33,177 nt of DNA, taken from positions 5,693 through 38,869 of the forward strand of contig CAYIKF010000003.1 of assembly GCA_964363945.1 (NCBI GenBank), given 5' to 3'. The stretch is from an uncultured Gammaproteobacteria bacterium. GTDB lineage: Bacteria; Patescibacteriota; Microgenomatia; UBA8517; JACQJR01. Positions 7,199 to 29,941 of the stretch are shown here, one piece after another. A model generated the notes under the pieces. The model was not told where the DNA came from. It ran no database searches and was given only the letters and a program-made list of their open reading frames with translations. Every line of letters starts with the position of its first letter. The stretch's first letter is position 1. Made by a program: the position numbers and the translations under genes.

Positions 7199-8365
7199 TT
7201 ACACTGAATTATATACACGAAGTGTTTCTTTCGCCATATTTTGCCATGAGAATTGTTGGGCTCTTTTCTCGCCCTTTTCCACCATTCTTCGATGTTTCGA
7301 GTCATCAAGGCGCAATACTTCACCTATTTTTTGAGCAATATCACCAACATTGTAAGGATTAAAGTATGTTGCGGCATCACCGTAAATTTCATGGAAGACC
7401 GGAATATCAGAACATACCACGGGGCACCCTGCTGCCATTGCTTCAAGGCCAGGCAAACCGAATCCTTCAGATAAAGATGGAAAAACAAATGCTTTCGCGT
7501 TTTTATAAAGCAGTGCTAACTCATCATCAGGAACGAATCCTAAAAAGTTCACAAAAGAATCAGCTTTGATTTTGTTAACATATTGTATTAATCGGGCAGT
7601 GAAAACATTCCGTGCACTCACGATAACTAAATTGATATGCAATTGTTTTACTGCACTAATAAGTCTTTCTAAATTTTTATGCGGATACGCACTTCCTGTA
7701 TAGATAACGTAAAGTTTATTTATTAATGAATATTTATTAAGGATTTTCTGTGATTGGTGATTGCCGCCCTTGGCGAGCCTCGCCTTCGGCGGGGTGATTG
7801 GTGATTTGAAAGAATCGTCGATTCCTTCATAAATAACCGTCACCCTCTCTTCATCTAATCCATACTCTTTCAGCAACTCCTCCTTCACTGCTTGACTTGG
7901 AACAATGATCTTTCTAGCCTTGTGTACTGCATTGCTAAATACCATCTTATATCCTGTATACTTTAGCCAATAAAGAAACGGCGCACGTGTTGTGGTTGCG
8001 GATCCCCGGGAAGTATGTTTTATTAAATCATGAATTGTGACAACAAATGGGCGCTTAAAAAAAAATGGTACATTAAAGTGAGGGAAATGGGCCAAGTCGA
8101 AATCTAAATTATTCAAAATCTGAGGAAGTCTAATTTGTTCTTGAAAACTGTAATGAGGACAATCTGGTTTGATAATTTCCATTTTCCATTTTCCATTTTC
8201 CATTGATTTTCCAATTTCTAATTTTTCAATTTGTGAATTATTAACCAAAACCACATGCTCATTCGCTGTATCTACAAGTTTCAGTTGACCAACCAAGTTC
8301 ATCACGTATCTGCCAATACCTGCATGTTCTAGTCCATACATTCGTGCATCAATAAGTATCTTCAT
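7199..8365 (-). CDS. GT4-family glycosyltransferase (start moved to Met25 of the track ORF)
   Basis: Canonical GT4 N-terminus MKILIDARMYGLEHAGIGRY begins at 8365, which avoids overlap with the upstream gene ending at 8380. C-terminal block FPSLSEGFGLPGLEAMAAGCPVVCSD ... FSWQNMAKETLRVY. Confidence 0.85.
   Translation of the reverse strand: MKILIDARMYGLEHAGIGRYVMNLVGQLKLVDTANEHVVLVNNSQIEKLEIGKSMENGKWKMEIIKPDCPHYSFQEQIRLPQILNNLDFDLAHFPHFNVPFFFKRPFVVTIHDLIKHTSRGSATTTRAPFLYWLKYTGYKMVFSNAVHKARKIIVPSQAVKEELLKEYGLDEERVTVIYEGIDDSFKSPITPPKARLAKGGNHQSQKILNKYSLINKLYVIYTGSAYPHKNLERLISAVKQLHINLVIVSARNVFTARLIQYVNKIKADSFVNFLGFVPDDELALLYKNAKAFVFPSLSEGFGLPGLEAMAAGCPVVCSDIPVFHEIYGDAATYFNPYNVGDIAQKIGEVLRLDDSKHRRMVEKGEKRAQQFSWQNMAKETLRVYNSV
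7750..7807. repeat. copy 1 of a dispersed GC-rich hairpin element nested between GTGATTG heptamers (putative miniature mobile element), inside a GT4 ORF
   Basis: 7757..7806 is 48/50 identical to 17702..17751. The core 7764..7792 is CCGCC-CTT-GGCGAG-C-CTCGCC-TTC-GGCGG, a two-stem hairpin. Flanking GTGATTG GTGATTG lies at 7750-7763 and GTGATTG GTGATTT at 7794-7807. Confidence 0.9.
8176..8204. repeat. perfect tandem heptamer array TTTCCAT x4 inside a GT4 ORF
   Basis: Read directly. CC dinucleotides recur at 8179, 8186, 8193 and 8200. Degenerate CCAATTT / CTAATTT units follow. The array encodes MENGKWKME. Confidence 0.92.
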
Positions 8366-8379
8366 AATATCGCCTGTGT

Positions 8380-9291
8380 TTACCAAAAAAACTGTCTGTA
8401 CTTCTCTAAAACCCAAATTCCCATCCCCACTAGCCATAGGATTGGTGTTGGATAACGTCCCACATAATGTTTCTTATAAAAAATCCTCATTGCTTCAATA
8501 GACGCGCGTGTTGCCATCTTTCGTATCTCTTTTGTCGCCACAGATACTTCCTTTGTATGTTTTTTAATTCCTGAGGATACTCCTCTATAGTGCAAAATAG
8601 ATACAGTTGGAACATACATTATTTTCCAACCCGCTTTTTTTAACCTGAAACAGAAGTCAATATCTTCCCCATACCAAAAATAATCTTCATCCCACCAACC
8701 TACCTTTTCTCCGGCTTCACGACGAACTATCATAAATGCTCCGCTAAGTGCGTCTATTTCGTGGGTTGTGATTCTTGGAAGATAACCCATTGTGTATCCA
8801 GAGAATAAACGTAATTTTGGGAACAGTCGCTCAAGCCCAAAGAAGTGGCAAAAAGCATTCCAGGGAGTGGGGAAACCGCGATGTGCCGCTTCATCCAGTC
8901 CACCATCGGGGGATTTTAATTTACAAGTTGCAGCCCCAACCTGTGGATGTTTATCCATAAAGCGAGTCATAAAACTGAGGGTATTTGGATTTACAATTGT
9001 ATCCGGGTTCAAAAAAAGAATATACCGACCTTTTACATAAGGCACTGCAACATTATTTCCCTTGGAAAATCCAAAATTTTCTTTGTTTTCAATAACTTGA
9101 TACTTGATACTTGACACATGATACTTCTGAAGTGCTTCCACGCTTCCATCGGACGAGGCATTATCAACTACAAATATATCCCATATATATCCATTTTTCT
9201 TTGAATTTTCGATTGATTGAATACACTGAGTAACAAAATTTTTTGCGTTATAATTGAGAATCACAATTGAAAGATCTGGATGTGTTTTCAT
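8380..9291 (-). CDS. GT2-family (GT-A fold) glycosyltransferase
   Basis: 303-aa ORF. LSIVILNYNAKNF ... VVDNASSDGSVEAL ... NFGFSKGNN ... LFLNPDT (DxD-type) ... GAFMIVRRE ... FWYGEDIDFCFRLKKAGWKI. ATGA overlap with the upstream GT4 at 9288-9291. Confidence 0.88.
   Translation of the reverse strand: MKTHPDLSIVILNYNAKNFVTQCIQSIENSKKNGYIWDIFVVDNASSDGSVEALQKYHVSSIKYQVIENKENFGFSKGNNVAVPYVKGRYILFLNPDTIVNPNTLSFMTRFMDKHPQVGAATCKLKSPDGGLDEAAHRGFPTPWNAFCHFFGLERLFPKLRLFSGYTMGYLPRITTHEIDALSGAFMIVRREAGEKVGWWDEDYFWYGEDIDFCFRLKKAGWKIMYVPTVSILHYRGVSSGIKKHTKEVSVATKEIRKMATRASIEAMRIFYKKHYVGRYPTPILWLVGMGIWVLEKYRQFFW
9095..9129. repeat. tandem heptamer array ACTTGAT ACTTGAT ACTTGAC ACATGAT ACTTCTG inside a GT2 ORF
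   Basis: Read directly. It encodes KYHVSSIKYQV in the loop between the DGS..EAL helix and the VIEN strand. Confidence 0.85.
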
Positions 9292-13295: not shown

Positions 13296-14187
13296 AAATC
13301 CTACTCCTTGGTGTAATGATACCAAAAATAAACATGCGAAGGACACTTCCTATAAAAAGTAAAAGGCGCAAAAACGCAAAGGCCATTTTTGAATAATGTT
13401 TTTTGTAAAGAAGTTTGAGGCCCTCGAATTCACGAAGAACCGTTCCCTCTCTTGTTCCACTTGCTCCCCCGAAGTGGATTATTTTCGTTTTTGGAACATA
13501 CCACACCTCCCACCCCTTGGCTTTAGTCCGCATACAATATTCAACCTCCTCTACATAGAGAAAGAAGCTCTCATCAAACAAACCAATCTCGCGAACTACC
13601 TCTCGCCGAATTAAAAAAAATGCTCCTGTTACCCAATCAAGCGGCCGTTCTTTTGAATAAGCAGAGCTTGACTTCGTATAAAAAGACCTATGGGGATGGT
13701 ACGAGCCAAAAAAATCGCCTACAAATGGTACGTCATCAATGAGTGTTGCCCACAAGAACACTCGCGGTAAGGTCGGGGAAAATCCGCCTGTTGGTTGGAG
13801 CGTGCCATCGGCATTTACTAATTTACAACTGGCAATGCCAACCTTTGGATGCTCATCCATCCACATCACCATACTAAGTAAAGAATTCTCAATTAATTTT
13901 GTATCCGAATTAAGAAGTAGAATATAACGTCCCTTTGCCTTCTTCATCCCCTGATTATTCGCCGCCCCAAATCCCTTGTTATCTTTATTTGTTATAACCT
14001 GTAACCTGTAACCTGTAACTTTCAATTTGCGTAATGCTTCAACTGTTCCATCTGTTGAATTATTATCAATCACAATAATTTCATAGGTTATGTCCTTCGT
14101 ATACTTCTTCACTGACTCTATACACTTCAAAAGAAGTTCTTTTGTGTTATACGACACTATAATTATCGAAAGATCAACTATTTCCAT
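13270..14187 (-). CDS. GT2-family glycosyltransferase (paralog of 8380..9291)
   Basis: LSIIIVSYNTKELL ... VIDNNSTDGTVEAL ... NKGFGAANN ... LLLNSDT ... GAFFLIRREV ... FLYVEEVEYCMRTKAKGWEV. It is collinear with 8380..9291. The track start 14217 is possible, and Met11 (14187) gives a smaller overlap. Confidence 0.85.
   Translation of the reverse strand: MEIVDLSIIIVSYNTKELLLKCIESVKKYTKDITYEIIVIDNNSTDGTVEALRKLKVTGYRLQVITNKDNKGFGAANNQGMKKAKGRYILLLNSDTKLIENSLLSMVMWMDEHPKVGIASCKLVNADGTLQPTGGFSPTLPRVFLWATLIDDVPFVGDFFGSYHPHRSFYTKSSSAYSKERPLDWVTGAFFLIRREVVREIGLFDESFFLYVEEVEYCMRTKAKGWEVWYVPKTKIIHFGGASGTREGTVLREFEGLKLLYKKHYSKMAFAFLRLLLFIGSVLRMFIFGIITPRSRIYVHALGRI
13995..14019. repeat. perfect tandem heptamer array AACCTGT x3.6 inside the paralogous GT2 ORF
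   Basis: Read directly. It encodes KVTGYRLQV at codons collinear with the array at 9095..9129. Confidence 0.92.
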
Positions 14188-17243: not shown

Positions 17244-18410
17244 TTATTTTAAAATCCTTTCTAACACCTCTAATGTTTGTTGGGCTGCTTTTTGCCAGTC
17301 GAAGAGTTTGGTGCGCTCTAAGCCTTTTTTGGATAATGCGTCATAATTTTTAAGAGCCTCTTTTATCCCACGAGCAATATCTCCTGGATCGTCGGGATTC
17401 ACTAAAATTCCTGCATCTCCCACAACTTCAGGCAAACTTCCGACAGTTGAGACGACAACCGGTGTTCCTACTGCCATTGCCTCAACTACTGGAATTCCAA
17501 ATCCTTCCCAAAAACTAGGCAAGACAAAAACTAGAGCTCCTGCCATGAGAAGCGGCACATCATCATCTGGTATAAAGTCAGTAAAAACCACTTTATCCCG
17601 AAGGGGCAAGCTCCGCTTATCTTCTAAATCTAATTCTTTTACTTTTTTGAAAATTGATTCATATAACCAACCCTTTTTACCGGCAATAACAAGAGTGATT
17701 AGTGATTGCCGCCCATGGCGAGCCTCGCCTTCGGCGGGGTGATTAGTGATTAGTGAGAAAGCAGTCAGCAAACCTTCAATGTTCTTACTTGGTTTTAGCG
17801 TACTCAGAAAAAGAATATAATCATCTTTAATGTTGTATTTTTTCTTTACTTCTCTAATTTTAATTTTTGATATTTGATTTTTAAATTTATTTTTATCGTA
17901 TCCCGGATACGTAACCGTTATTTTTGAACGTGGAATTTTGTAATACCTGATAATGTCTCTTTTTGTGCTTTCTGAAATAGCAATGACGTGGTCTGACTTT
18001 TTAATAGAGTGGGCTGTCCAAGAAGTTAATTGGTAAAGATCGCGGCGTGTAAATTGATCGGGGTATCGCAAATACCCAAGGTCCATTATTGAAACAACTG
18101 TCGGAATAGGTGACCAACGAGGACGATAATGCCCTGGGGTAAAAAATACTTCGGGTCTTGGCTCGGCAAAAAAAAGAGAAAGAGGAAGCGCAAATTGAGT
18201 CCATAAACGCTTAGGGCCGAAGACTTTATATTTCCACCATGAAATTTCTTTGGGCATGTCAGGAAGGGGAGTATCACGTAAATAAATCATCCACTCATGT
18301 TTTTTTGCCTCTGGCAAGTTATACAAAGCATGGAGAAGTTCAAACGCATATTGGTTTGATCCAACACGCCGTTCTACATTTGCTTCATTGCCATCAACGC
18401 CGATTATCAT
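17244..18410 (-). CDS. GT4-family glycosyltransferase
   Basis: 388-aa ORF. MIIGVDGNEANVERRVGSNQY N-terminus, C-terminal block LPSFWEGFGIPVVEAMAVGTPVVVSTVGSLPEV, and tail FDWQKAAQQTLEVLERILK. Confidence 0.85.
   Translation of the reverse strand: MIIGVDGNEANVERRVGSNQYAFELLHALYNLPEAKKHEWMIYLRDTPLPDMPKEISWWKYKVFGPKRLWTQFALPLSLFFAEPRPEVFFTPGHYRPRWSPIPTVVSIMDLGYLRYPDQFTRRDLYQLTSWTAHSIKKSDHVIAISESTKRDIIRYYKIPRSKITVTYPGYDKNKFKNQISKIKIREVKKKYNIKDDYILFLSTLKPSKNIEGLLTAFSLITNHPAEGEARHGRQSLITLVIAGKKGWLYESIFKKVKELDLEDKRSLPLRDKVVFTDFIPDDDVPLLMAGALVFVLPSFWEGFGIPVVEAMAVGTPVVVSTVGSLPEVVGDAGILVNPDDPGDIARGIKEALKNYDALSKKGLERTKLFDWQKAAQQTLEVLERILK
17695..17759. repeat. copy 2 of the dispersed GC-rich hairpin element nested between GTGATTA/GTGATTG heptamers, inside another GT4 ORF
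   Basis: GTGATTA GTGATTG + CCGCCCATGGCGAGCCTCGCCTTCGGCGG + G + GTGATTA GTGATTA GTGAGAA. It is on the same strand as copy 1 but is read in a different codon phase. Confidence 0.9.
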
Positions 18411-19519: not shown

Positions 19520-20972
19520 CTTGAGTTAATTGTACGCCTCGCTCGTATTCGAACACAAACCCCACTCCTCGGAAGTTATATGTTGCTACCTTAACAAAAC
19601 CCTTCTCGTCTAATGTCTTTTCAACTACCCCCTCAGGATCATTTATCTCGACCAAATATTGAAAAACAAAAATTTGCTCTCTCTCTTTTATAATTTGGTC
19701 AAGTCCAGGATTCAAACCCCCTACACCATCAACAATCCCTTTTGAATACCAAGAAAAACCAGGCATCACACTTTTGCTCTCAAAAAGAACAAGAACGCCA
19801 GGAGTTGCTTTTTGTTCAATAAAGGATACTGCCCCTCTCCAATCTTCTCTCTGAAAGCGTGAATTGAAAAGATAGATACCACTTGAAACTATATTAACCA
19901 AAAGTAACCCAACCACCATTATCAACCTCACTTTACTGTTTTTAAATGAAAGCGCGCCAAATGCCGCGAGTAAATAAAATGGGGGTAATAAGAAAATGAG
20001 CCGAAAATAGGAAAATACTGAAACTTTGAGTCCCACCAGAGCCACTGCGAGAATAGGTAATGTAAACCATACCCATAAAAAACTAGTCCGCTGCCACAGA
20101 GTAACACTTTTGAGGAAAACGCTCGCAAAAAGCACAGTTGGAATAACAAGCAACGCGGCATAAAGCACACTATTTTCTGCCGATATTCTCCCAATCATAA
20201 ATTTAATAGGTACTAAAGCAAGCTCTTTTACGTTCGTTCCGCCCAGCACATTCCACCATTGGGGGTTAGTCATTTGTACACCCAAGCCTGCCGCAAGTTG
20301 CCCAAATAATATCGGAACCCAAGGTAAAAAAAGGAAAAGAATGGCTATGGTAGCTAACAACCAGTTGGTAACACTCTTTTTAAGATGTTTTCTTTCGAAC
20401 ACGAGTAAATACAAAGCGAAAAATAGAAAAAGAAAAACGGGGAGATAATCGGTATAGAGAAGAAGTGTACTTACAATTACTAATCCCACCCAATCCGACG
20501 CTTGCTGTTTTTTCGCTTTGATAATTTTCAAGAAAAACAAAACTGAAAGGGTTGTAAAAAACACTGCCGGAACATACATTCGTGCTTCTTGAGAATAGTA
20601 AATGTGTAAACCTGAAGTTGCCAAAAAAAGAGCTGCAACTTCAGGAAATTTCCAATTTCCAATTTCCAATTTCCAATTAATTTGTTCAATTAAAATTTTC
20701 CCAATTAAGAAAACTACCCAAATTGTAGCAACACCAAACAAAACTGAAAGCATACGTATAGCGACCTCCGATGTACCAAAAACTTGTATAAAGAAGTGGA
20801 GTATCAAGTAGTAAAGTGGTGGGTGAAAGTCACCAGGAGAGAATTGTGCTAAAATTTCGGCAACAGAAAAGTCGCGTGCCACTAACGCGCTTGTCGCCTC
20901 ATCATGCCAAAAAGATTGGTTAAGGGAAATCAGTCTAAGTAAAAACCCAAGTATAAGAATTACGAAAATCAC
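19482..20972 (-). CDS. polytopic GT-C membrane glycosyltransferase (PMT_2 / ArnT-like)
   Basis: 496-aa multi-TM ORF. The N-terminus LLRLISLNQSFWHDEATSALVARDF ... FHPPLYYLILHFF is typical of the PMT_2/ArnT family. The GTG start forms a GTGA overlap with the upstream GT2 gene (20969-20972). Confidence 0.78.
   Translation of the reverse strand: MIFVILILGFLLRLISLNQSFWHDEATSALVARDFSVAEILAQFSPGDFHPPLYYLILHFFIQVFGTSEVAIRMLSVLFGVATIWVVFLIGKILIEQINWKLEIGNWKFPEVAALFLATSGLHIYYSQEARMYVPAVFFTTLSVLFFLKIIKAKKQQASDWVGLVIVSTLLLYTDYLPVFLFLFFALYLLVFERKHLKKSVTNWLLATIAILFLFLPWVPILFGQLAAGLGVQMTNPQWWNVLGGTNVKELALVPIKFMIGRISAENSVLYAALLVIPTVLFASVFLKSVTLWQRTSFLWVWFTLPILAVALVGLKVSVFSYFRLIFLLPPFYLLAAFGALSFKNSKVRLIMVVGLLLVNIVSSGIYLFNSRFQREDWRGAVSFIEQKATPGVLVLFESKSVMPGFSWYSKGIVDGVGGLNPGLDQIIKEREQIFVFQYLVEINDPEGVVEKTLDEKGFVKVATYNFRGVGFVFEYERGVQLTQDEDWNRYFANSL
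20647..20678. repeat. perfect tandem heptamer array AATTTCC x4.5 inside a GT-C ORF
   Basis: Read directly. CC recurs at 20652, 20659, 20666 and 20673. It encodes NWKLEIGNWKF in a loop between TM segments. Confidence 0.92.
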
Positions 20973-21811
20973 TTTGCTCCTCTACCTGTCATCCGATATT
21001 CTAAAATTCCTATAAAAATTCCAAAATCATAAACAATCTTAAAGATGAGAAAATGCGGCGTTTTATTAAGGATAGATTTTACCAGTCCTACTACTAGTGA
21101 TACCGGTAAAGACGCGCGAAATAGTGCAAAAGTTGCTCCGAGGATTCCCAATTTATACTCTCTTTTAGCAACCCAATGCGCGTGGTTAAAAACTTCAGAA
21201 AGATTACTGGGATTTGCATGATAAAACTTAGCATCAGGGGCAGCTACTGCTTCATATCCAAGTTTCTGACTTAAACTCCAATCATCCGTATAATACCCAC
21301 CAAGTTCAAATCCTCCTACCTTATCAAACTCACTTTTTAAAAGTGCTCTGAAAACCTTCTGTGTGGGTGGGTAGTTTTTAGGATGGCGCTTTCTCTCCTC
21401 CCAACCCTCATTTATATTCCAACACAGCGCCCACACATTTTCCCAGTTTGAGACATATTCCTCACGACTCCACGTGCCGCTTGCGTTCCCTCTTATTATT
21501 GGTGCAACCAACTTCTCTATAAAGTCCCTCTCAAACGTCATATCCGCATCAACAAAAACGAGTATTTCTCCTTTTGCATGGGTTGCTCCCAAATTCCTCG
21601 CCTCACCTGGTCCCTTATGTTTCTGTTCAAAAATTCTTAAATCGTACTTCTTAAATCTTAAATCTCCGACAATACTAAGGGTATTGTCGATCGAGCCATC
21701 ATCTACAACAATTACCTCTATTTTTTTGTAAGTTTGTTCGCACAAAGATTCCAAACACTTGTTAATTGTTTCCTCTTCGTTATAAGTAGGAATAATAACT
21801 GTGACTTTCAT
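20969..21811 (-). CDS. GT2-family glycosyltransferase with hydrophobic C-terminal segments (possible polyprenyl-phosphate sugar synthase, GtrB/CsbB/Ppm-like)
   Basis: 280-aa ORF. VTVIIPTYNEEETI ... VVDDGSIDNT ... VFVDADMTF, followed by C-terminal hydrophobic stretches (LGILGATFALFRASLPVSLVVGLV, FLIFKIVYDFGIFIGIL). It is translationally coupled to the downstream GT-C gene. The lipid-carrier role is inference. Confidence 0.8.
   Translation of the reverse strand: MKVTVIIPTYNEEETINKCLESLCEQTYKKIEVIVVDDGSIDNTLSIVGDLRFKKYDLRIFEQKHKGPGEARNLGATHAKGEILVFVDADMTFERDFIEKLVAPIIRGNASGTWSREEYVSNWENVWALCWNINEGWEERKRHPKNYPPTQKVFRALLKSEFDKVGGFELGGYYTDDWSLSQKLGYEAVAAPDAKFYHANPSNLSEVFNHAHWVAKREYKLGILGATFALFRASLPVSLVVGLVKSILNKTPHFLIFKIVYDFGIFIGILEYRMTGRGAK
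21636..21665. repeat. tandem heptamer array CTTAAAT CGTACTT CTTAAAT CTTAAAT inside a GT2 ORF
   Basis: Read directly. It encodes DLRFKKYDLRI, again in the loop following the DDGS.DNT motif. Confidence 0.8.
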
Positions 21812-21877
21812 TTTGAGCCTAAGTGAGAAACAAGCTCTGCTTATTTTGAACGTCAGTGAGAAACAAGCTCTGCTTAT
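21811..21877. repeat. 33-nt tandem duplication (30/33 identical, with a perfect 23-mer AGTGAGAAACAAGCTCTGCTTAT x2) filling the intercistronic spacer
   Basis: Units are 21811-21843 and 21844-21876. On the coding strand each unit starts with TAAGCAGAGCTTGTTTCTCACT. The first TAA (21876-21874) is the stop of the GT4 gene, and the array ends at the ATG of the GT2 gene (21811). Confidence 0.9.
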
Positions 21878-22884: not shown

Positions 22885-24272
22885 TTTGCGCGCTCCCATA
22901 GCCAAACTCCCGGCTTTACTTCTTCCTCTTTAGTATAGTGCTCCTCTATCCAGCGAACAATTTTTTGTGGTTGATAAGTCCCTAAGTCAAACCAGTTTCC
23001 CGGGGAAGGTGTACGCCAGAAAATAAAGTGTGGTGGCCCACCAGCTGACGAATTTTCCCAGCGGGCGATAATTTCCTCCTGAACGCCAGGAATTTCAAGA
23101 TACCATCCGAAATTGTCAGTCCAACGTTTTGGGGGAACTCTCCCTGCCATTACATAAAGTCCTGAGTGGAGACCCAATAGAAAAACTTTTTCGCTCTGCG
23201 GAACTTTACTTTGAATCGTTTGTGCTAATTCCAAATCCTCTTTTGCGTAAAACCGTGTTTCTCTTCCCCACTCGCTAGAAAGGAGCGGACGATGGATAGC
23301 AAAGAAGATAAGTAATAAGTAAGAAGTAATAAGTAATAACTTAAATCTTTTTATTTTCATTTGATTAAAAAGCAAACCATAAAGAATAACCAGAAAAACG
23401 AGAGCTGTTTGAAAGTGAAAAAAAGAAAAACGAGGATAGATTATGATAAGCGCAATTACTAGAAAGGGGAATAAAACTTGAAATACTGAATCTTTAAGAA
23501 TTTCCTTATTCTTAATGATGATAATTAAAAGTGGCACAAGTAAAAAAATACTTATAAATGCTTGCCCAGGAGATACCTCCATATGCACATATCCCGGAAA
23601 TTTACCAAACTGCGTAAGAGGATAAATAATTGTCCAGTTTAAAAAATCAACGAGCGCTCCCTCTTGTAAAAGCCTAATCAAAAGTGGAATCCCTAAAATC
23701 AAAGGACCATAAAATAAGTATTTCAATTGATTAAAACTTGTTTTCTTAATAAGAAGTAAATATAAAATAGTAAATAACAAATATAATCCTGCTGTTTGTT
23801 TGGTAAGAGCAGCCGCTGCAAAAAATAATCCTGCCAAGAATAAATTATGTCTTAACAAAAATAGTGTTCCCAAAAGGATTGGGAGAACAATTGCAATATC
23901 AAACCATAGCATGTTTCCTTCGAGAAAGGGCTGCAAAAAGATATACGCCGCAACGGCAAAAAACGCCGGTGCATCGCGGCGGGTTGTGGAGCGAGTAATA
24001 ATAAACACAAGAATATCACTTACAAGAATTACCGCCCATGCTACACTTTTGAGTACCCAAAGATGATAGCCAAAAAGCGTGTACGCCCACGAAAGTGCCA
24101 TGGTAAGAAGCGGAGGATACGGATGAATCATATCTTTATAGATGAGAAATCCGTGATTACGAAGATAAGAATACGAAAGCATCTCAGGCCAGGCAGTAAA
24201 TTGAAGATTGGCTAGGAAAAAAAAGTGAAGCCCCAGTAGTAAAACAATCAGAATGTATGTCCCATATCTCAT
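22881..24272 (-). CDS. polytopic membrane protein, putative GT-C-type glycosyltransferase
   Basis: The ORF was trimmed to Met51 (MRYGTYILIVLLLGLHFFF) because that ATG forms an ATGA overlap with the methyltransferase stop (24269-24272). It has about 12 hydrophobic segments followed by a soluble C-terminal domain. The architecture is ArnT/PMT-like. The family call is tentative. Confidence 0.55.
   Translation of the reverse strand: MRYGTYILIVLLLGLHFFFLANLQFTAWPEMLSYSYLRNHGFLIYKDMIHPYPPLLTMALSWAYTLFGYHLWVLKSVAWAVILVSDILVFIITRSTTRRDAPAFFAVAAYIFLQPFLEGNMLWFDIAIVLPILLGTLFLLRHNLFLAGLFFAAAALTKQTAGLYLLFTILYLLLIKKTSFNQLKYLFYGPLILGIPLLIRLLQEGALVDFLNWTIIYPLTQFGKFPGYVHMEVSPGQAFISIFLLVPLLIIIIKNKEILKDSVFQVLFPFLVIALIIIYPRFSFFHFQTALVFLVILYGLLFNQMKIKRFKLLLITSYLLLIFFAIHRPLLSSEWGRETRFYAKEDLELAQTIQSKVPQSEKVFLLGLHSGLYVMAGRVPPKRWTDNFGWYLEIPGVQEEIIARWENSSAGGPPHFIFWRTPSPGNWFDLGTYQPQKIVRWIEEHYTKEEEVKPGVWLWERAK
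23310..23339. repeat. tandem heptamer array AAGTAAT AAGTAAG AAGTAAT AAGTAAT inside a membrane-protein ORF
   Basis: Read directly. It encodes LLITSYLLLI, part of a TM segment. Confidence 0.85.
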
Positions 24273-25090
24273 ACTTTTTGTGCAATAACTGTTACTCCAC
24301 TCCCCATTCCCATCTTTATTAAAATAAAAGAAGGAAGGAAAGTTATAATATTCGTAAAAAATCGTTTTCTTAGTTTTACCAAACTCTGCCAGATTTCTTT
24401 CGCGGGATTTCCATAGTTCCATACTCCTGAATGTGTTTCACAATAAAGCATTTTAAATCCTACTTTTTCCAAAAGAAGTGAGAGCGCTTGAGGAGTAAAG
24501 TGCCAGCGATGCTCTTTTGGTAAAATATAAGCCCAATGAGCACCCCATATCCGTGCAGTTAGACTTGCAAAATTTGGAGCATCAATAAAAATAAGCCCGT
24601 CTTTTTTCAAAACAGCATTTGCCTTCTGTAAGACCTCTAGTGGATTTTCCATATGCTCAAGAACATGGTTAAAAATAATAAGATCAAAACTGTTGTGAGA
24701 GATGTCAGCATTTTCAAAGGTCGCAACTATTGTTGGAATTTTTCTCTTTTGTGCGGCAGAAGCGGCTGGTTTTGATGGTTCAATTCCTTGGACTTCCCAG
24801 TCTTGCTGCTTTAATAGGGATAAAAAAATTCCAGTGGATGAACCAATCTCAAGAACTTTGCCCTTCTTTTTGAACTTAGAAATTATCTTCACCCTTTTTT
24901 CAAAAATATTCCTAAACTGTTCTTTTTCTTTGATGTAAACCTGATCTCTGTGGTAAGCAGCATATTGTCGTTGCTTACCTCTTTGCTCTGTAGCGCCTAA
25001 GCCACAAGCTTTGCACTGCAAAATTTTAATTCCTTCATTTTCACCTAAAAGCTTAAATCTTTTCCCACAACTGATACACTTTCTATTCAT
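24269..25090 (-). CDS. class I SAM-dependent methyltransferase with N-terminal Cys4 zinc-ribbon
   Basis: 273-aa ORF. CISCGKRF...CKACG ribbon, motif I VLEIGSSTGIFLSLL, and FDLIIFNHVLEHMENP. Confidence 0.85.
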   Translation of the reverse strand: MNRKCISCGKRFKLLGENEGIKILQCKACGLGATEQRGKQRQYAAYHRDQVYIKEKEQFRNIFEKRVKIISKFKKKGKVLEIGSSTGIFLSLLKQQDWEVQGIEPSKPAASAAQKRKIPTIVATFENADISHNSFDLIIFNHVLEHMENPLEVLQKANAVLKKDGLIFIDAPNFASLTARIWGAHWAYILPKEHRWHFTPQALSLLLEKVGFKMLYCETHSGVWNYGNPAKEIWQSLVKLRKRFFTNIITFLPSFILIKMGMGSGVTVIAQKV

Positions 25091-25099
25091 ATATGGTTA

Positions 25100-25972
25100 T
25101 TAGTATCCTACTTTTGTGCCTTTAATTAATCGCCTTTTTAATTTTTTAAATGGCGTTTCTATGCTAGCACGAATTGTATAGCTAGTACTCCGCTTTATCC
25201 ATGGGAAAGGTACGATTCCTGGACGTGGTCTAAAAAATACTTCCGGATAATAAAAATCAGATGGAAATGGAATTCCTAGCTCGTATTTAAATTTGTGAAC
25301 TCTTTTGGGAACTAATAAGTCCTTTTCTCGCGAAACTGTTCTGGGGAGAAAGGTAGCATGAAGGTATGGTGCATCAACAAATAAAATCTTTTGAGCGCTC
25401 CTGTTTTGAATCATTCTGTTATCACCATCCACCCAGCCCCATTTCCCGTGTGGGCCAGCAGAATGCAGTCCCGGAATACTACGGTTTACCGCGCGCAAAT
25501 TGAAGTGTCCCCTCTTTCCTGCAAGATGATACTGACCCGCCGCTTCTTCCTGATAATGATATATATCACCAATCAAGTTAATTGTCGGCACCACTATTGA
25601 TTCTATTTCTTTTCCCTTATCACTTAATTCGAGCTTGCGAGAATCAAACTCGTTTATCACTTCTTTCACTTTCTGTATTGATTCTTCCCACCAAATTTCA
25701 TCTCCATCAACCATAATAAACCAGTCGGTGCTTGTGGAGTTTAACATCTCTTGGCGAACTTTAGTAAAACCTATGAGGTCTACTTCTCCAACTTCTCGCA
25801 AATCAATTTCTTTATTAGTTGATTTCTTTATTTCCTTTAAGATCTCCAGTGTTCCATCTGTACTTCCCGTATCCCAAAGAAGCACTTTATCTACATAATT
25901 AATAACAGACATTACCGCATACCACACAAACCTCGCTTCGTTTTTAACTAACGTATGAGCGGTTATAGTCAT
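25100..25972 (-). CDS. GT2-like glycosyltransferase (divergent)
   Basis: The ORF was trimmed to Met9 (MTITAHTLVKNEARF), whose ATG forms an ATGA overlap at 25969-25972. Blocks WDTGSTDGTLEIL and FIMVDGDEIWWEE (DxD-type). Confidence 0.62.
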   Translation of the reverse strand: MTITAHTLVKNEARFVWYAVMSVINYVDKVLLWDTGSTDGTLEILKEIKKSTNKEIDLREVGEVDLIGFTKVRQEMLNSTSTDWFIMVDGDEIWWEESIQKVKEVINEFDSRKLELSDKGKEIESIVVPTINLIGDIYHYQEEAAGQYHLAGKRGHFNLRAVNRSIPGLHSAGPHGKWGWVDGDNRMIQNRSAQKILFVDAPYLHATFLPRTVSREKDLLVPKRVHKFKYELGIPFPSDFYYPEVFFRPRPGIVPFPWIKRSTSYTIRASIETPFKKLKRRLIKGTKVGY

Positions 25973-27243: not shown

Positions 27244-29941
27244 CTTTACCTCTATCTTTAGAGTAAAACCAAAGAAAAATAACTGCAAGCGAAAATATAG
27301 CAGCTAAACTTATATATCCTCCCCAAAGTACATGTTCCTGTCCCACAAAAGTAATCTCTATATCTTGCCAATTAGGCAAAACATAGAATCCATTTATCAT
27401 AGAGTAAAGTGGGTAAGAAGGCAGAAATTCCCTCCCCTTTTTCAACTTCCATTGTGAATGATAACTATCTGTAAAAATAATCCAATTATTCTGGGGCGGA
27501 TTAACTTTATATCGAACCGGGTTTATCATCTCGTAATCCACCTGTCTCCATTGACTAATGTTGGCTAATTGCTGCAATTCTTGCTCATCACCCTTCCCGT
27601 CAATCCTTACCACTGGAAAATCTCTCAGAAAATTTTGTGTTAATTTCTGCGCTTCCTCCCAATCCTTCTTTGGAACAAAAGCTACTGTATTAAGAGCATG
27701 AAATCCATTAATATTCTTAAACGCTACTCTTTTCTGACCCTTTTTTAGAGAAAATCCTTCTCTTATATACCATTCAAAATGGTATTTCGTATTGTAAGTA
27801 ATTGGGGACCCGTAAAATAAATCTACTCCCAACTGCTCATCCTTGTCCCTAGTTAACGTTCTTGCGGCAAAAACATATTCACCGTCAGATAAAACATCAA
27901 TATCGAAGTAAATCCACTCATCGGCAACAGAAGAAAATGCAATACCTTTACCATAATCAAATTCTTTTGTATCCACACCATTAATCAAAAACTCATATTT
28001 CCATTTCAAATAATCGTCAGCAGAACGCAGCGCCCATTGCGAAGGTCCTTTTACTCCCTTAGTTGCCTCTCTTGGAGAAACAAAATGCTTCTGTAAAAAA
28101 CTCATGGTTAAATCAATCTCGTCTTTTTCAGTGAAAACTAAAATCGCAGACTGCGAGGCAATCCTCTGCAAATTCCTTGGATCAAATTTTCCATCCTCAA
28201 GAAACACGAAAGCCTGGTTGCCTACGGAAAAATTTTTATCTTTTTCTTTGAGTTTTTGATAAATATCCTCACTTCCTATAACAGCAATTAATTTATCAAC
28301 CGAAAATATATGAGGCTTTGTATCAACAAGACTATAAACAGGGAAACTCACTCCCCAGTCTTCTTTTAACAAACCAGATGTAGAAGCTGTTAAAGTTAAA
28401 AGATTATTCCAGTCTTGTTGTTGCGTTTCATTTAGTTGAAATGTTCGTGGGTCTCCCGAAAAAACAAGATACTTAATTCCCAAAAGGTCAAACCATTCCA
28501 AAAAAGAAGAATCGTGCACAAAATTGAATGCGTCATACGTTCCCACATTGAGCGAGGCAAAAGGGCGCTCTTCCAATAATCTTTTCGCATCAAGTGCTTG
28601 TTTCCCCTCTGTATGAAACCCAAATGGATGGCGTTCTGGAAACCATGCTGTTCTAAAAAAACTTGAGTCCCCTCTTAACTTCTCGTATACAATCTCTAAG
28701 TCGTGAGGAAATTCCCTACCAGACAACACCCCGTGCAAACCGCCTAGGAGCGCAGGGTGTATTAGGAAAAGCAAATATGCATATACCGCGAAGGACGCCA
28801 GGAAATTTACACCCGCACTAAAGGGTGTAAAGAAACCTTTCAAAAGACCGCCAATACGCTCAACAGTTATACCAATTAACATTCCTCCAAAAAGAAGAAG
28901 TGGTGCAAAAAATTTAGTGGAGTCACGAAAAGCGACAGCAAAAGGGACATTTCTCACCACCCACTCGTACCATTCACCAAATGGTGCCGTCTCTCCCTTG
29001 ACTAAGAAAGTAAAAAGTAAAAAGTAAAAAGTAAAAAGTAAAATCTTTTTATTTGGCCTAAGAAGCAAATTAGCAAATATTAAAAGTGGAATACCTACAA
29101 AATAAAACGGGGGCGGAAAAACTCTTCCAAACTCATTCCCTGGCCAATGTGGCTGAAAGAGAAGAAGAGGATTGAGTAATGAAATAAGCTGAAGGCTTGA
29201 AACAGAGACGCTTAAATTCCCACCTATTAAACTTGGAATAATCCAATAAGAATTTGCGGCAATTGTTAAAAAAATAAGTGGAATTAGAAATTTAAGATTT
29301 TTAACAGTGTTTCCTTGGCGGCTCTCTATCCAGTCAATAAAAACCCAAACAACCAGAGCAAGAATACCAATAGCAGCAATGCGAGGATCAATAACTGATA
29401 GAACAATTAAGAAAAATAAAGAACAAAGAAAATTTTTAAAACGAGGGATATCAATTAACTTCCTAAGAAAGAGAAGAGTTAATGGGAAAAATCCATAAGC
29501 AAGTGCCACGCCGACTTGCCCACCATCAACAAGAAGCAAAAAATACGTATTAAGTGTATAAACAAGCGAGGCAAAAAATTGAACAACCCTTGAATACCCT
29601 AGGTATCGCGCAAAAAAGATAGGGGTACTCAGTGAAAGAAGAGTTGCCGGGAAATAGAAAAGTATCCTAATTATTAAATCGTTATCAAGACCGAAAAGCT
29701 TGTGCAGTATCCCGTATACAAACATTAAAGGAGAGAGCCAAAGAAGAGAATTTATCCCGCCAAAGTTATTTCCATTATCAGTCCAAAGATAGGGTTTTGC
29801 GACCAATTCTTTTAAACCTTCGGGGTAAAAATAAGGGGCATCTCCCCAGACGAGTGGTGATGGTGTAAAAAATGCCCTAAACGCTAAAAGAGTGGGAACG
29901 GCAAGTCCGAGAAAAACCAAAATGTTATACTTTTGTATCAT
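27236..29941 (-). CDS. large polytopic membrane protein, GT-C-like N-terminal half plus extracytoplasmic C-terminal half ending in a YfhO-like module and TM anchor
   Basis: About 900 aa from the ATG at 29941. The track start at 29962 is a GTG. It has many TM segments in the first ~420 aa. The C-terminal tail FTDSYHSQWKLKKG...EITFVGQEHVLWGGYISLAAIFSLAVIF parallels the tails of 30145..32124 and 32402..33177. Confidence 0.6.
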   Translation of the reverse strand: MIQKYNILVFLGLAVPTLLAFRAFFTPSPLVWGDAPYFYPEGLKELVAKPYLWTDNGNNFGGINSLLWLSPLMFVYGILHKLFGLDNDLIIRILFYFPATLLSLSTPIFFARYLGYSRVVQFFASLVYTLNTYFLLLVDGGQVGVALAYGFFPLTLLFLRKLIDIPRFKNFLCSLFFLIVLSVIDPRIAAIGILALVVWVFIDWIESRQGNTVKNLKFLIPLIFLTIAANSYWIIPSLIGGNLSVSVSSLQLISLLNPLLLFQPHWPGNEFGRVFPPPFYFVGIPLLIFANLLLRPNKKILLFTFYFLLFTFLVKGETAPFGEWYEWVVRNVPFAVAFRDSTKFFAPLLLFGGMLIGITVERIGGLLKGFFTPFSAGVNFLASFAVYAYLLFLIHPALLGGLHGVLSGREFPHDLEIVYEKLRGDSSFFRTAWFPERHPFGFHTEGKQALDAKRLLEERPFASLNVGTYDAFNFVHDSSFLEWFDLLGIKYLVFSGDPRTFQLNETQQQDWNNLLTLTASTSGLLKEDWGVSFPVYSLVDTKPHIFSVDKLIAVIGSEDIYQKLKEKDKNFSVGNQAFVFLEDGKFDPRNLQRIASQSAILVFTEKDEIDLTMSFLQKHFVSPREATKGVKGPSQWALRSADDYLKWKYEFLINGVDTKEFDYGKGIAFSSVADEWIYFDIDVLSDGEYVFAARTLTRDKDEQLGVDLFYGSPITYNTKYHFEWYIREGFSLKKGQKRVAFKNINGFHALNTVAFVPKKDWEEAQKLTQNFLRDFPVVRIDGKGDEQELQQLANISQWRQVDYEMINPVRYKVNPPQNNWIIFTDSYHSQWKLKKGREFLPSYPLYSMINGFYVLPNWQDIEITFVGQEHVLWGGYISLAAIFSLAVIFLWFYSKDRGKDV
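29007..29043. repeat. tandem heptamer array GTAAAAA x5.3 inside the large membrane-protein ORF
   Basis: Read directly. G recurs at 29010, 29017, 29024, 29031 and 29038. It encodes ILLFTFYFLLFTFL, a TM-like segment. Confidence 0.92.

Follow-up and report, generated by a model that had tools for sequence, protein, structure and literature searches.

The 33,177-nt stretch analysed here (the window; contig CAYIKF010000003.1, positions 5,693-38,869, forward strand) contains two copies of a GC-rich hairpin of about 30 nt, each lying inside a GT4 glycosyltransferase gene and bracketed by heptamer repeats. We conclude that the hairpin in the first gene is very probably one copy of a family of non-autonomous DNA-level insertions, made of a 29-nt palindromic core plus a G, that has spread through uncultivated bacterial lineages. 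A preliminary description of the window had noticed this hairpin and taken it for a DNA-level repeat of very small size that was mobile or copied. This interpretation stands, as the same DNA is used in different frames, is missing or replaced in orthologues, and has further copies elsewhere. The features of the two sites are listed below.

7199..8437 (likely start 8365), minus strand: host gene 1, GT4 glycosyltransferase, Pfam PF13439 and PF00534
7750..7762, plus strand: left half-array of site 1, GTGATTG GTGATT; the unit on the gene strand is AATCACC
7763..7793, plus strand: element copy 1, G followed by the 29-nt core CCGCC-CTT-GGCGAGCCTCGCC-TTC-GGCGG (7764-7792) and G
7794..7806, plus strand: right half-array of site 1, (G)GTGATT GGTGATT
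17244..18410, minus strand: host gene 2, GT4 glycosyltransferase, Pfam PF13439 and PF00534
17695..17707, plus strand: left half-array of site 2, GTGATTA GTGATT
17708..17738, plus strand: element copy 2, G followed by the core CCGCC-CAT-GGCGAGCCTCGCC-TTC-GGCGG (17709-17737) and G
17739..17756, plus strand: right half-array of site 2, GTGATTA GTGATTA GTGA

To locate the core, the window was searched with the pattern CCGCCCWTGGCGAGCCTCGCCTTCGGCGG. The only matches were 7764-7792 and 17709-17737, both on the plus strand, and the number expected by chance was 0 (100 shuffles of the window). The segments 7757-7806 and 17702-17751 are identical at 48 of 50 positions, which reproduces the earlier count. 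Copy 1 is bracketed by two GTGATTG units on the left and two GGTGATT units on the right, and copy 2 by the equivalent GTGATT[A/G] units; the heptamers reported on either side of the core are thus present at both copies. These two elements are the only GC-rich islands within heptamers in the window. In an ungapped comparison, the likeness between the copies is confined to 7750-7806 and 17695-17751 and is random outside. Because the likeness stops at the heptamers, a conversion tract between the two GT4 genes that is longer than the element was ruled out.

The core is predicted to fold into an outer stem of 5 bp (CCGCC/GGCGG), a 3x3 internal loop, an inner stem of 5 bp (GGCGA/TCGCC) and a 3-nt loop. 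The folding energy is -10.6 kcal/mol as DNA (z about -2.8) and -17.7 kcal/mol as RNA (z about -2.4). The outer stem and the internal loop agree with the preliminary description. Its inner stem of 6 bp does not, since a sixth pair would leave a loop of 1 nt. A search of the whole window against Rfam found no family at gathering scores, and around the element there were chance-level matches only.

In gene 1, the array and core encode SPITPPKARLAKGGNHQSQ at residues 211-229, in the linker between the two Pfam (Rossmann-like) domains. This is the inserted peptide that had been placed just before the C-terminal Rossmann domain. In the AlphaFold model of gene 1 (mean predicted local distance difference test score, pLDDT, 81), residues 215-225 lie in a loop between the domains that has no secondary structure, and their pLDDT is <50. 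In gene 2, the array and core encode SLITNHPAEGEARHGRQSLIT, which lies inside the C-terminal domain. The decapeptide encoded by the core is PPKARLAKGG in gene 1 and PAEGEARHGR in gene 2, that is, the two genes use different frames at different positions of the GT4 fold.

A search of metagenome contigs with the heptamer-plus-core pattern found a third copy on contig L125 (6241-6283) of the same Hainich groundwater sample. This contig has only 62 nt in common with the window. Its copy is flanked by the same AGTGATT heptamers and lies within a UvrD/PcrA helicase gene, at the position of a loop where the solved PcrA is 14 residues shorter. One population thus carries three copies in about 47 kb (window plus L125). 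Judging from the two frames, the different GT4 sites and the third copy in a UvrD/PcrA gene, the element is a DNA-level insertion and a protein motif is excluded. This agrees with the earlier view that the peptide is not a conserved protein motif, which is also borne out by orthologues without the element.

To see how the two sites vary, we aligned them with their orthologues. Empty sites had been proposed as something to look for in related GT4 genes, and array-only alleles were found at both sites (contigs L126 and L127). The records from which the orthologues of gene 1 were taken bear the names Microgenomates or Patescibacteria. In the linker of gene 1, P0003/L122 has no array and no core; P0004/L126 and P0012 have an array only, encoding SPITNHQSQ and SSIINHQSS respectively; and P0002/L121, P0009, P0011 and P0014 have an array with a different core. 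At site 1, the conserved anchors are 108 nt apart in L126, which contains only (AATCACC)x3.9. In the window they are 138 nt apart, that is, +30; the window has the same four units as L126, with the 30 extra nt exactly between units 2 and 3. L121 has 147 nt between the anchors and carries an unrelated GC-rich hairpin at the identical junction, where the flanking DNA matches the window exactly over 39 nt upstream and 59 nt downstream:

L121 1312-1348: unrelated GC-rich hairpin of 37-39 nt, CGCCCGCATCGCCTAAGCTCAGCTTTGGCGGGCGTGG, in the orthologue of window gene 7199-8437

Site 2 gave the same difference. In the array-only relative L127 the length is 87 nt, against 117 nt in the window, again +30. 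Forty orthologues of site 2 range from a minimal loop to the heptamer-coded SLITNYYSLIT and to heptamers with other cores. Filled and array-only alleles differ by exactly 30 nt, with no target duplication past one G. The array base adjoining the core at site 2 has changed from AATCACT to AATCACC, which matches the version at site 1. The N-terminal variable loop of gene 1 has three different heptamer arrays in three relatives. These alignments show a precise gain or loss of 30 nt at array junctions, and turnover of the core at one junction between close relatives. Because every state is seen among the orthologues of both sites, we read the heptamer arrays as hypervariable insertions in permissive loops, within which hairpin cores come and go. 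A peptide conserved across orthologues, which would have spoken for a protein motif, is ruled out by the orthologues that lack the core or have a different one.

In the site-2 orthologue of L122 (about 1229-2389), the loop that holds heptamers and core in the window is occupied by a perfect inverted repeat of 13 bp (CTGGGATACTGGG ... CCCAGTATCCCAG), after which CCCAGCAA repeats come. This insert encodes GHWDTGSNKPSIPATQQPSD, and a related insert is common to P0123 and P0133.

To find the element in other organisms, we scanned one genome per species with the exact pattern CCGCC-NNN-GGCGAGCCTCGCC-NNN-GGCGG. All counts given below for the family are among the matches listed. The listed copies are partly related by descent, and counts and p-values are approximate. 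Taxon names are the depositors' labels, with an independent check for two loci. At least 119 stretches of genome contigs match the family pattern, all of them in metagenome-assembled genomes (MAGs). Together with the third copy in the population, they rule out that the two window copies are an isolated pair produced by local conversion. Most listed hosts are labelled as Patescibacteria lineages. Other host labels are Omnitrophota (six independent MAGs), Ignavibacteriota/Melioribacter, Bacteroidetes/Saprospiraceae, Elusimicrobia, Planctomycetota/Brocadiia, Melainabacteria, Deltaproteobacteria/Thermodesulfobacteriota, WOR-3 and Actinobacteria. None of the 119 listed records is labelled Nostocaceae. 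The GC content of the host loci ranges from 31 to 63%.

Type-IX-secretion (T9SS) sorting domains are encoded on two of the host contigs, L015 and L020. Such domains occur only in the FCB group (Bacteroidota/Ignavibacteriota and relatives), so hosts from the FCB group are real, and the idea that every host is a mislabelled member of Patescibacteria was rejected. Individual labels may still be wrong. The MAG CAYTZB01 (L122; GCA_964442455.1, CAYTZB010000001.1) is labelled 'uncultured Gammaproteobacteria' and is syntenic with the window, with 70-79% protein identity over the glycosylation locus. Other homologues of window genes come from organisms named Microgenomates or Patescibacteria. The 'Gammaproteobacteria' label of at least this one MAG is doubtful. 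Taxon labels in the batch of Third Party Annotation MAGs to which CAYTZB01 belongs look unreliable.

The sequence of the core hardly varies. A G precedes and a G follows it in all 125 listed oriented copies, so the conserved unit is G-CCGCC-NNN-GGCGAG-C-CTCGCC-NNN-GGCGG-G. This unit is a perfect palindrome around the central C; its skeleton is asymmetric only at the centre and at the two flanks, which are coupled to each other. In listed MAGs of several phyla, 25 of the 31 positions are identical. On contig L095 (3953-4042), three copies stand head to tail with a period of 30 inside an open reading frame (ORF) and encode PPGASLAKGG three times. Diverged copies number about 3 in 930 kb. The only clearly decayed copy, at L073 6005-6035, has T instead of C at the centre, one stem mismatch, and G on both flanks.

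A scan of 2.9 million viral contigs gave no match. BLAST of the core against 72,556 plasmids, pNPUN01 included, gave only chance matches in high-GC replicons. An assembly artefact was rejected, as the same sequence occurs in independent assemblies with the ORFs intact.

We then examined how the element fits into coding sequence. Of 128 listed copies, 92 are in stretches of 600 nt or more without a stop, and all six frames are used. By a stricter test, 64 of 129 listed copies are deep inside ORFs with the frame intact, and there is one split-frame candidate. Among the proteins that carry it are UvrD, a GH3 enzyme, O-antigen-ligase-like proteins and PriA, the last with two copies read in different frames. 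The preliminary description had said that the element tolerates translation; a length that is a multiple of three and the 64 frame-intact copies bear this out. Depending on frame and strand, the core encodes six peptides, PP[KE]ARLA[KR]GG, RQ[RG]RGSPxAA, PA[EK]GEARQ[GR]RQ, PPxASLAKGG, RQRRASPEAG and AAEGEPRQ[GR]RE, all of them hydrophilic and rich in Gly, Pro, Ala and Arg.

The two 3-nt loops vary in a strand-dependent way. Loop triplets are free of stops in all six frames in 252 of 258 cases, and 232 of 258 loops are all-pyrimidine or all-purine. Relative to the host genes, 55 copies are antisense and 31 sense. Copies with pyrimidine loops are antisense by 36:3 and copies with purine loops are sense by 20:0 (Fisher p = 6e-13), so the mRNA strand almost always has the purine loops. 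Stop-codon avoidance was rejected as the source of this composition, since 54 of the 64 triplets are stop-free anyway, yet 90% of loops are of a single class. Independent inversion of each small loop was also rejected. The purine form of the left CTT is GAA, not AAG, which means that the two loop types are reverse complements of the whole element, centre and flanks apart. Given the purine loops on the mRNA strand, it appears that the element is translated and that selection filters its copies. The listed copies demonstrate frame neutrality, a loop bias that depends on the strand, and a distribution across phyla.

Heptamers are the favoured surroundings of the element. Period-7 flanks, usually of about two units per side, are found at 23-26 of 125 listed copies; periods 6 and 8-11 are found at 0-2. 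As only about 20% of copies have such flanks, the heptamers are a preferred context and not part of the element. The heptamer varies by genome (GATTTTT, GAACGCT, GGAAATT, GACTTTT and others) and the core stays constant. In L029, from the same MAG as L122 and a relative of the window organism, the core lies in GAGTTTT heptamers. Period 7 also dominates the arrays themselves: among long short-period arrays, the window has 5 of period 7 vs 0 for other periods from 4 to 12, and the other loci have 56 of period 7 and at most 4 of any other period. No difference in heptamer number, of the kind that switches reading frames on or off in phase-variable contingency loci, was seen between the window and the near-identical contig L001; between species, array lengths vary and all are in-frame.

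Other cores use the same context. Those nested in heptamer arrays include one of 39 nt in L121, TCCCGCACATAAGTTATGTGCGGGA in L118 and TCCATTCGACAAGCTCAG in L064. A sister family of 30 nt, T-CCGCC-NNN-GGCGGATCCGCC-NNN-GGCGG-A, also occurs in heptamers:

L113 7842-7871: copy of the sister family
L076 3443-3472: copy of the sister family
L078 about 2400-2455: sister family, with the studied element at a neighbouring junction

On L078, both families are found at neighbouring junctions of one GAATTTT array. The core itself lies inside the first loop of a sister element in L053, L099 and L110, where it adjoins a G, and also in L026 and L040. In L002, L067 and L093 it lies in the loop of other palindromes. 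A search for a protein family recurring near the copies (1,506 ORFs within about 4 kb, all-vs-all clustering) found none beyond housekeeping families present in at most 8 of 119 listed loci.

Some further repeats were observed in the same contigs. A short GC-rich core containing TTCGACAAGCTCAG lies in heptamers at L064 1609-1626 and encodes peptides of the type 'FDKL..G', which are also found in P0009 (TFDKLSTG), P0011 and P0014. We take such peptides to recur in hypothetical proteins of many environmental bacteria, and the core containing TTCGACAAGCTCAG may be a second cross-phylum mini-element. Seven heptamer arrays of the window, at 8176-8204, 9095-9114, 13995-14019, 20647-20678, 21649-21665, 23308-23339 and 29007-29043, repeat the seven different units TTTCCAT, ACTTGAT, TAACCTG, AATTTCC, TCTTAAA, ATAAGTA and AAAGTAA perfectly or nearly so. 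They all lie in long minus-strand ORFs, mostly glycosylation genes, and encode 7-residue repeats such as NGKWKME. At a gene boundary, 21810-21877, there is a 33-nt tandem repeat of 2.1 copies. L001, from the same sample, apparently has about one 33-nt unit fewer, as the BLAST segments overlap by 35 nt there and abut in the window. L001 is otherwise 99.97% identical to the window, and 21 of the 27 single-base differences cluster within 1.6 kb (24318-25964) of the glycosylation locus, which points to variation between strains or to recombination there.

To place the element among known systems, we compared it with several classes of short repeats. In Nostoc punctiforme and other Nostocaceae, Elhai et al. 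(2008, Genome Res 18:1484) reportedly described the small dispersed repeats (SDRs) SDR1-8 as very small (tens of nt), dispersed, non-coding, in some cases hairpin-forming, and nested in heptameric tandem repeats. Their mobility is said to have been deduced from presence and absence, and we know of no enzyme for them. The element resembles SDRs in that it is tiny, forms a hairpin, is nested in heptamers and other palindromes, and is judged mobile from presence and absence. The nesting in heptamers applies to the 23-26 listed copies with period-7 flanks, to the window copies and to L125. According to PMC5861425, SDRs are 21-27 nt long and have been reported only in Nostocaceae; PMC4390886 places SDR5 inside the HIP1 palindrome. 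Unlike SDRs, the element has a core of 29 nt (30-31 nt with flanking G), is near-invariant in MAGs of Patescibacteria, Omnitrophota, the FCB group and others, and often lies inside ORFs with a frame-neutral length. In 200 kb of N. punctiforme pNPUN01 we counted 10 period-7 arrays vs 0-1 for other periods and found no core nested in heptamers. The likeness to heptamer-nested repeats of Nostoc that had been proposed at the outset proved apt: they are the closest described system, and period-7 arrays are also abundant in pNPUN01. We file the element near the very small nested mobile repeats and, as it appears, outside any named family, with the SDRs compared by description only.

In yeast mitochondria, short GC-rich hairpins (GC clusters and 'byp' elements) are said by Lang et al. 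(2014, PNAS) to invade AT-rich coding sequence, with the byps skipped by the ribosome so that the frame need not hold. The element is likewise a short GC-rich hairpin that invades AT-rich coding DNA. Unlike byps and T4 gene 60, it is always 30 nt long, has 252 of 258 loops free of stops and shows a purine bias on the sense strand. Other systems share single traits. Rickettsia palindromic elements are selfish palindromes of about 100-150 bp that are inserted in-frame in unrelated, often essential genes of one genus and are translated (reviewed in PMC10969869). Both insert palindromes in-frame at sites that the fold tolerates, here in 64 frame-intact listed copies, a disordered linker and a surface loop of PcrA. 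However, the Rickettsia elements encode one conserved peptide and have about five times the length, whereas the element has 30 nt, crosses phyla and encodes six peptides. Repetitive extragenic palindromic sequences and their hairpin-forming doublets (REP/REPIN) are short, GC-rich and species-specific; they are mobilised by RAYT (Y1 HUH) transposases and clustered around a RAYT gene (PMC3116915). The element is also a short, GC-rich, non-autonomous palindrome with many copies, for which a single-strand hairpin is the likely substrate. In contrast to REPs, 50-72% of its listed copies are within long open frames and not extragenic, its sequence crosses phyla, and no recurring linked gene family was found within about 4 kb of the 119 listed loci. 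It also differs from a miniature inverted-repeat transposable element (MITE), which derives from an insertion sequence, has terminal inverted repeats and a target-site duplication and is usually longer than 50 bp. Here a single palindrome of 29 nt makes up the entire element, nothing in the flanks is constant but one G per side, and direct repeats across the core were found only at period 7. Literature searches with the core sequence and the six encoded peptides found no paper, and searches for heptamer or palindromic repeats in Patescibacteria or the candidate phyla radiation found nothing relevant.

We propose the following course of events for the copy in gene 1. As the alignments show, the element entered a four-unit array in a disordered linker, or was copied there, at the point where units 2 and 3 meet, and added exactly 30 nt. 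Insertion would take place beside a G in DNA that is able to loop out, such as heptamer arrays and the loops of other palindromes, and would be performed by a trans-acting enzyme encoded elsewhere. Within one genome, short-homology copying from one array to another with an identical heptamer may add further copies, which would account for the heptamer that the copies share and for the altered array base at site 2. In genes it would persist only where a short hydrophilic loop is tolerated, helped by a length that is a multiple of three and by nearly all copies being stop-free in six frames. Selection would keep the copies whose 3-nt loops are purine-rich on the mRNA strand and which encode short hydrophilic decapeptides rich in Gly, Pro, Ala and Arg. 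The insert would be translated as a neutral or near-neutral linker, with no benefit to the enzyme.

Dedicated mobility would not be needed if the core were copied from array to array by short-homology recombination or template switching, guided by the 14 nt of heptamers on each side. The three copies of the population, with the same heptamer on both sides in symmetric 2+2 units, would fit this, as would the 30-nt difference between filled and array-only alleles without duplication past one G, and the site-2 base that matches site 1. However, about 80% of copies elsewhere have no heptamer flanks, the core lies in different heptamers in different genomes (GAGTTTT in L029), and it is also found in the loops of unrelated palindromes and in the sister element. 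Homology between arrays therefore cannot account for how the core reached other contexts or other genomes. We consider it unlikely that copying without dedicated mobility accounts for the element; array-to-array copying may be the main route within one genome.

It is quite improbable, in our judgement, that the element is a functional cis-element under selection, that is, a site for a DNA- or RNA-binding protein or an mRNA structure that lies in genes by chance. Its 25 of 31 identical positions in several phyla, the central C that always goes with G on both flanks (125 of 125 listed copies) and the very few decayed copies are what such a function could produce. But the element is present or absent between close relatives at one site, where L121 has an unrelated 39-nt hairpin instead, and it occurs in both orientations and all frames. 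It is also scattered over unrelated housekeeping genes (PriA, UvrD, GT4, GH3), nests in other repeats, and matches no Rfam family. Hardly credible is an insert that stays untranslated, because the ribosome hops the hairpin between matching heptamer codons in the style of the byp elements of Magnusiomyces mitochondria and of T4 gene 60, or because the RNA is processed. A GC-rich hairpin in AT-rich coding DNA would suit this, with direct-repeat flanks offering identical take-off and landing codons. Bypassed inserts need no frame, whereas this element always measures 30 nt, and the frame is kept in 64 of the 65 copies that are deep in or split an ORF. Nearly all copies are stop-free, and a purine loop bias on the mRNA strand and hydrophilic residues are expected only if the insert is translated.

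Several points also weigh against the explanation that we favour, a mobile family of non-autonomous insertions. We infer mobility from presence/absence patterns and have seen neither a transposition event nor an enzyme; that the insert is translated is also something we infer. Selfish repeats seldom keep 25 positions almost unchanged across phyla, and this conservation could hint at a function; selection by an exact pattern under-samples decayed copies. All three copies in the population have one heptamer, and the base change at site 2 fits array-to-array copying equally well.

The near-identity of so small a repeat across phyla is new. The preliminary description could not show that the 29-nt core is near-invariant in several phyla, that it lies in ORFs in six frames, that its loops on the mRNA are biased to purines, and that no more than about 20% of copies have heptamer flanks. 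Short repeats such as REPs and MITEs usually stay within one species or genus. Identity at 25 positions across phyla implies either frequent transfer between distant bacteria or dependence on a widely conserved enzyme. In both cases it would open a new way to study how uncultivated lineages exchange and repair DNA. The element also accounts for odd decapeptides rich in Gly, Pro, Ala and Arg and for 7-residue repeats in proteins predicted from metagenomes. Such peptides resemble real sequence variation and may mislead alignments, domain models and phylogenies. The abundance of 7-nt arrays in Nostoc is tied to the same phenomenon in Patescibacteria, which makes the origin of the arrays testable by comparative genomics. 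More tentatively, at somewhat below an even chance, the core may represent an undescribed class of mobile hairpins of about 30 nt, among the smallest mobile DNAs known and kept constant across phyla by a conserved trans-acting enzyme that works on looped-out single-stranded DNA, with arrays and palindromes as landing pads. Together with the GGATCC-centred sister family and other cores with a length of 3n, they may be shaped for translation in six frames, which would allow them to colonise gene-dense genomes such as those of Patescibacteria.

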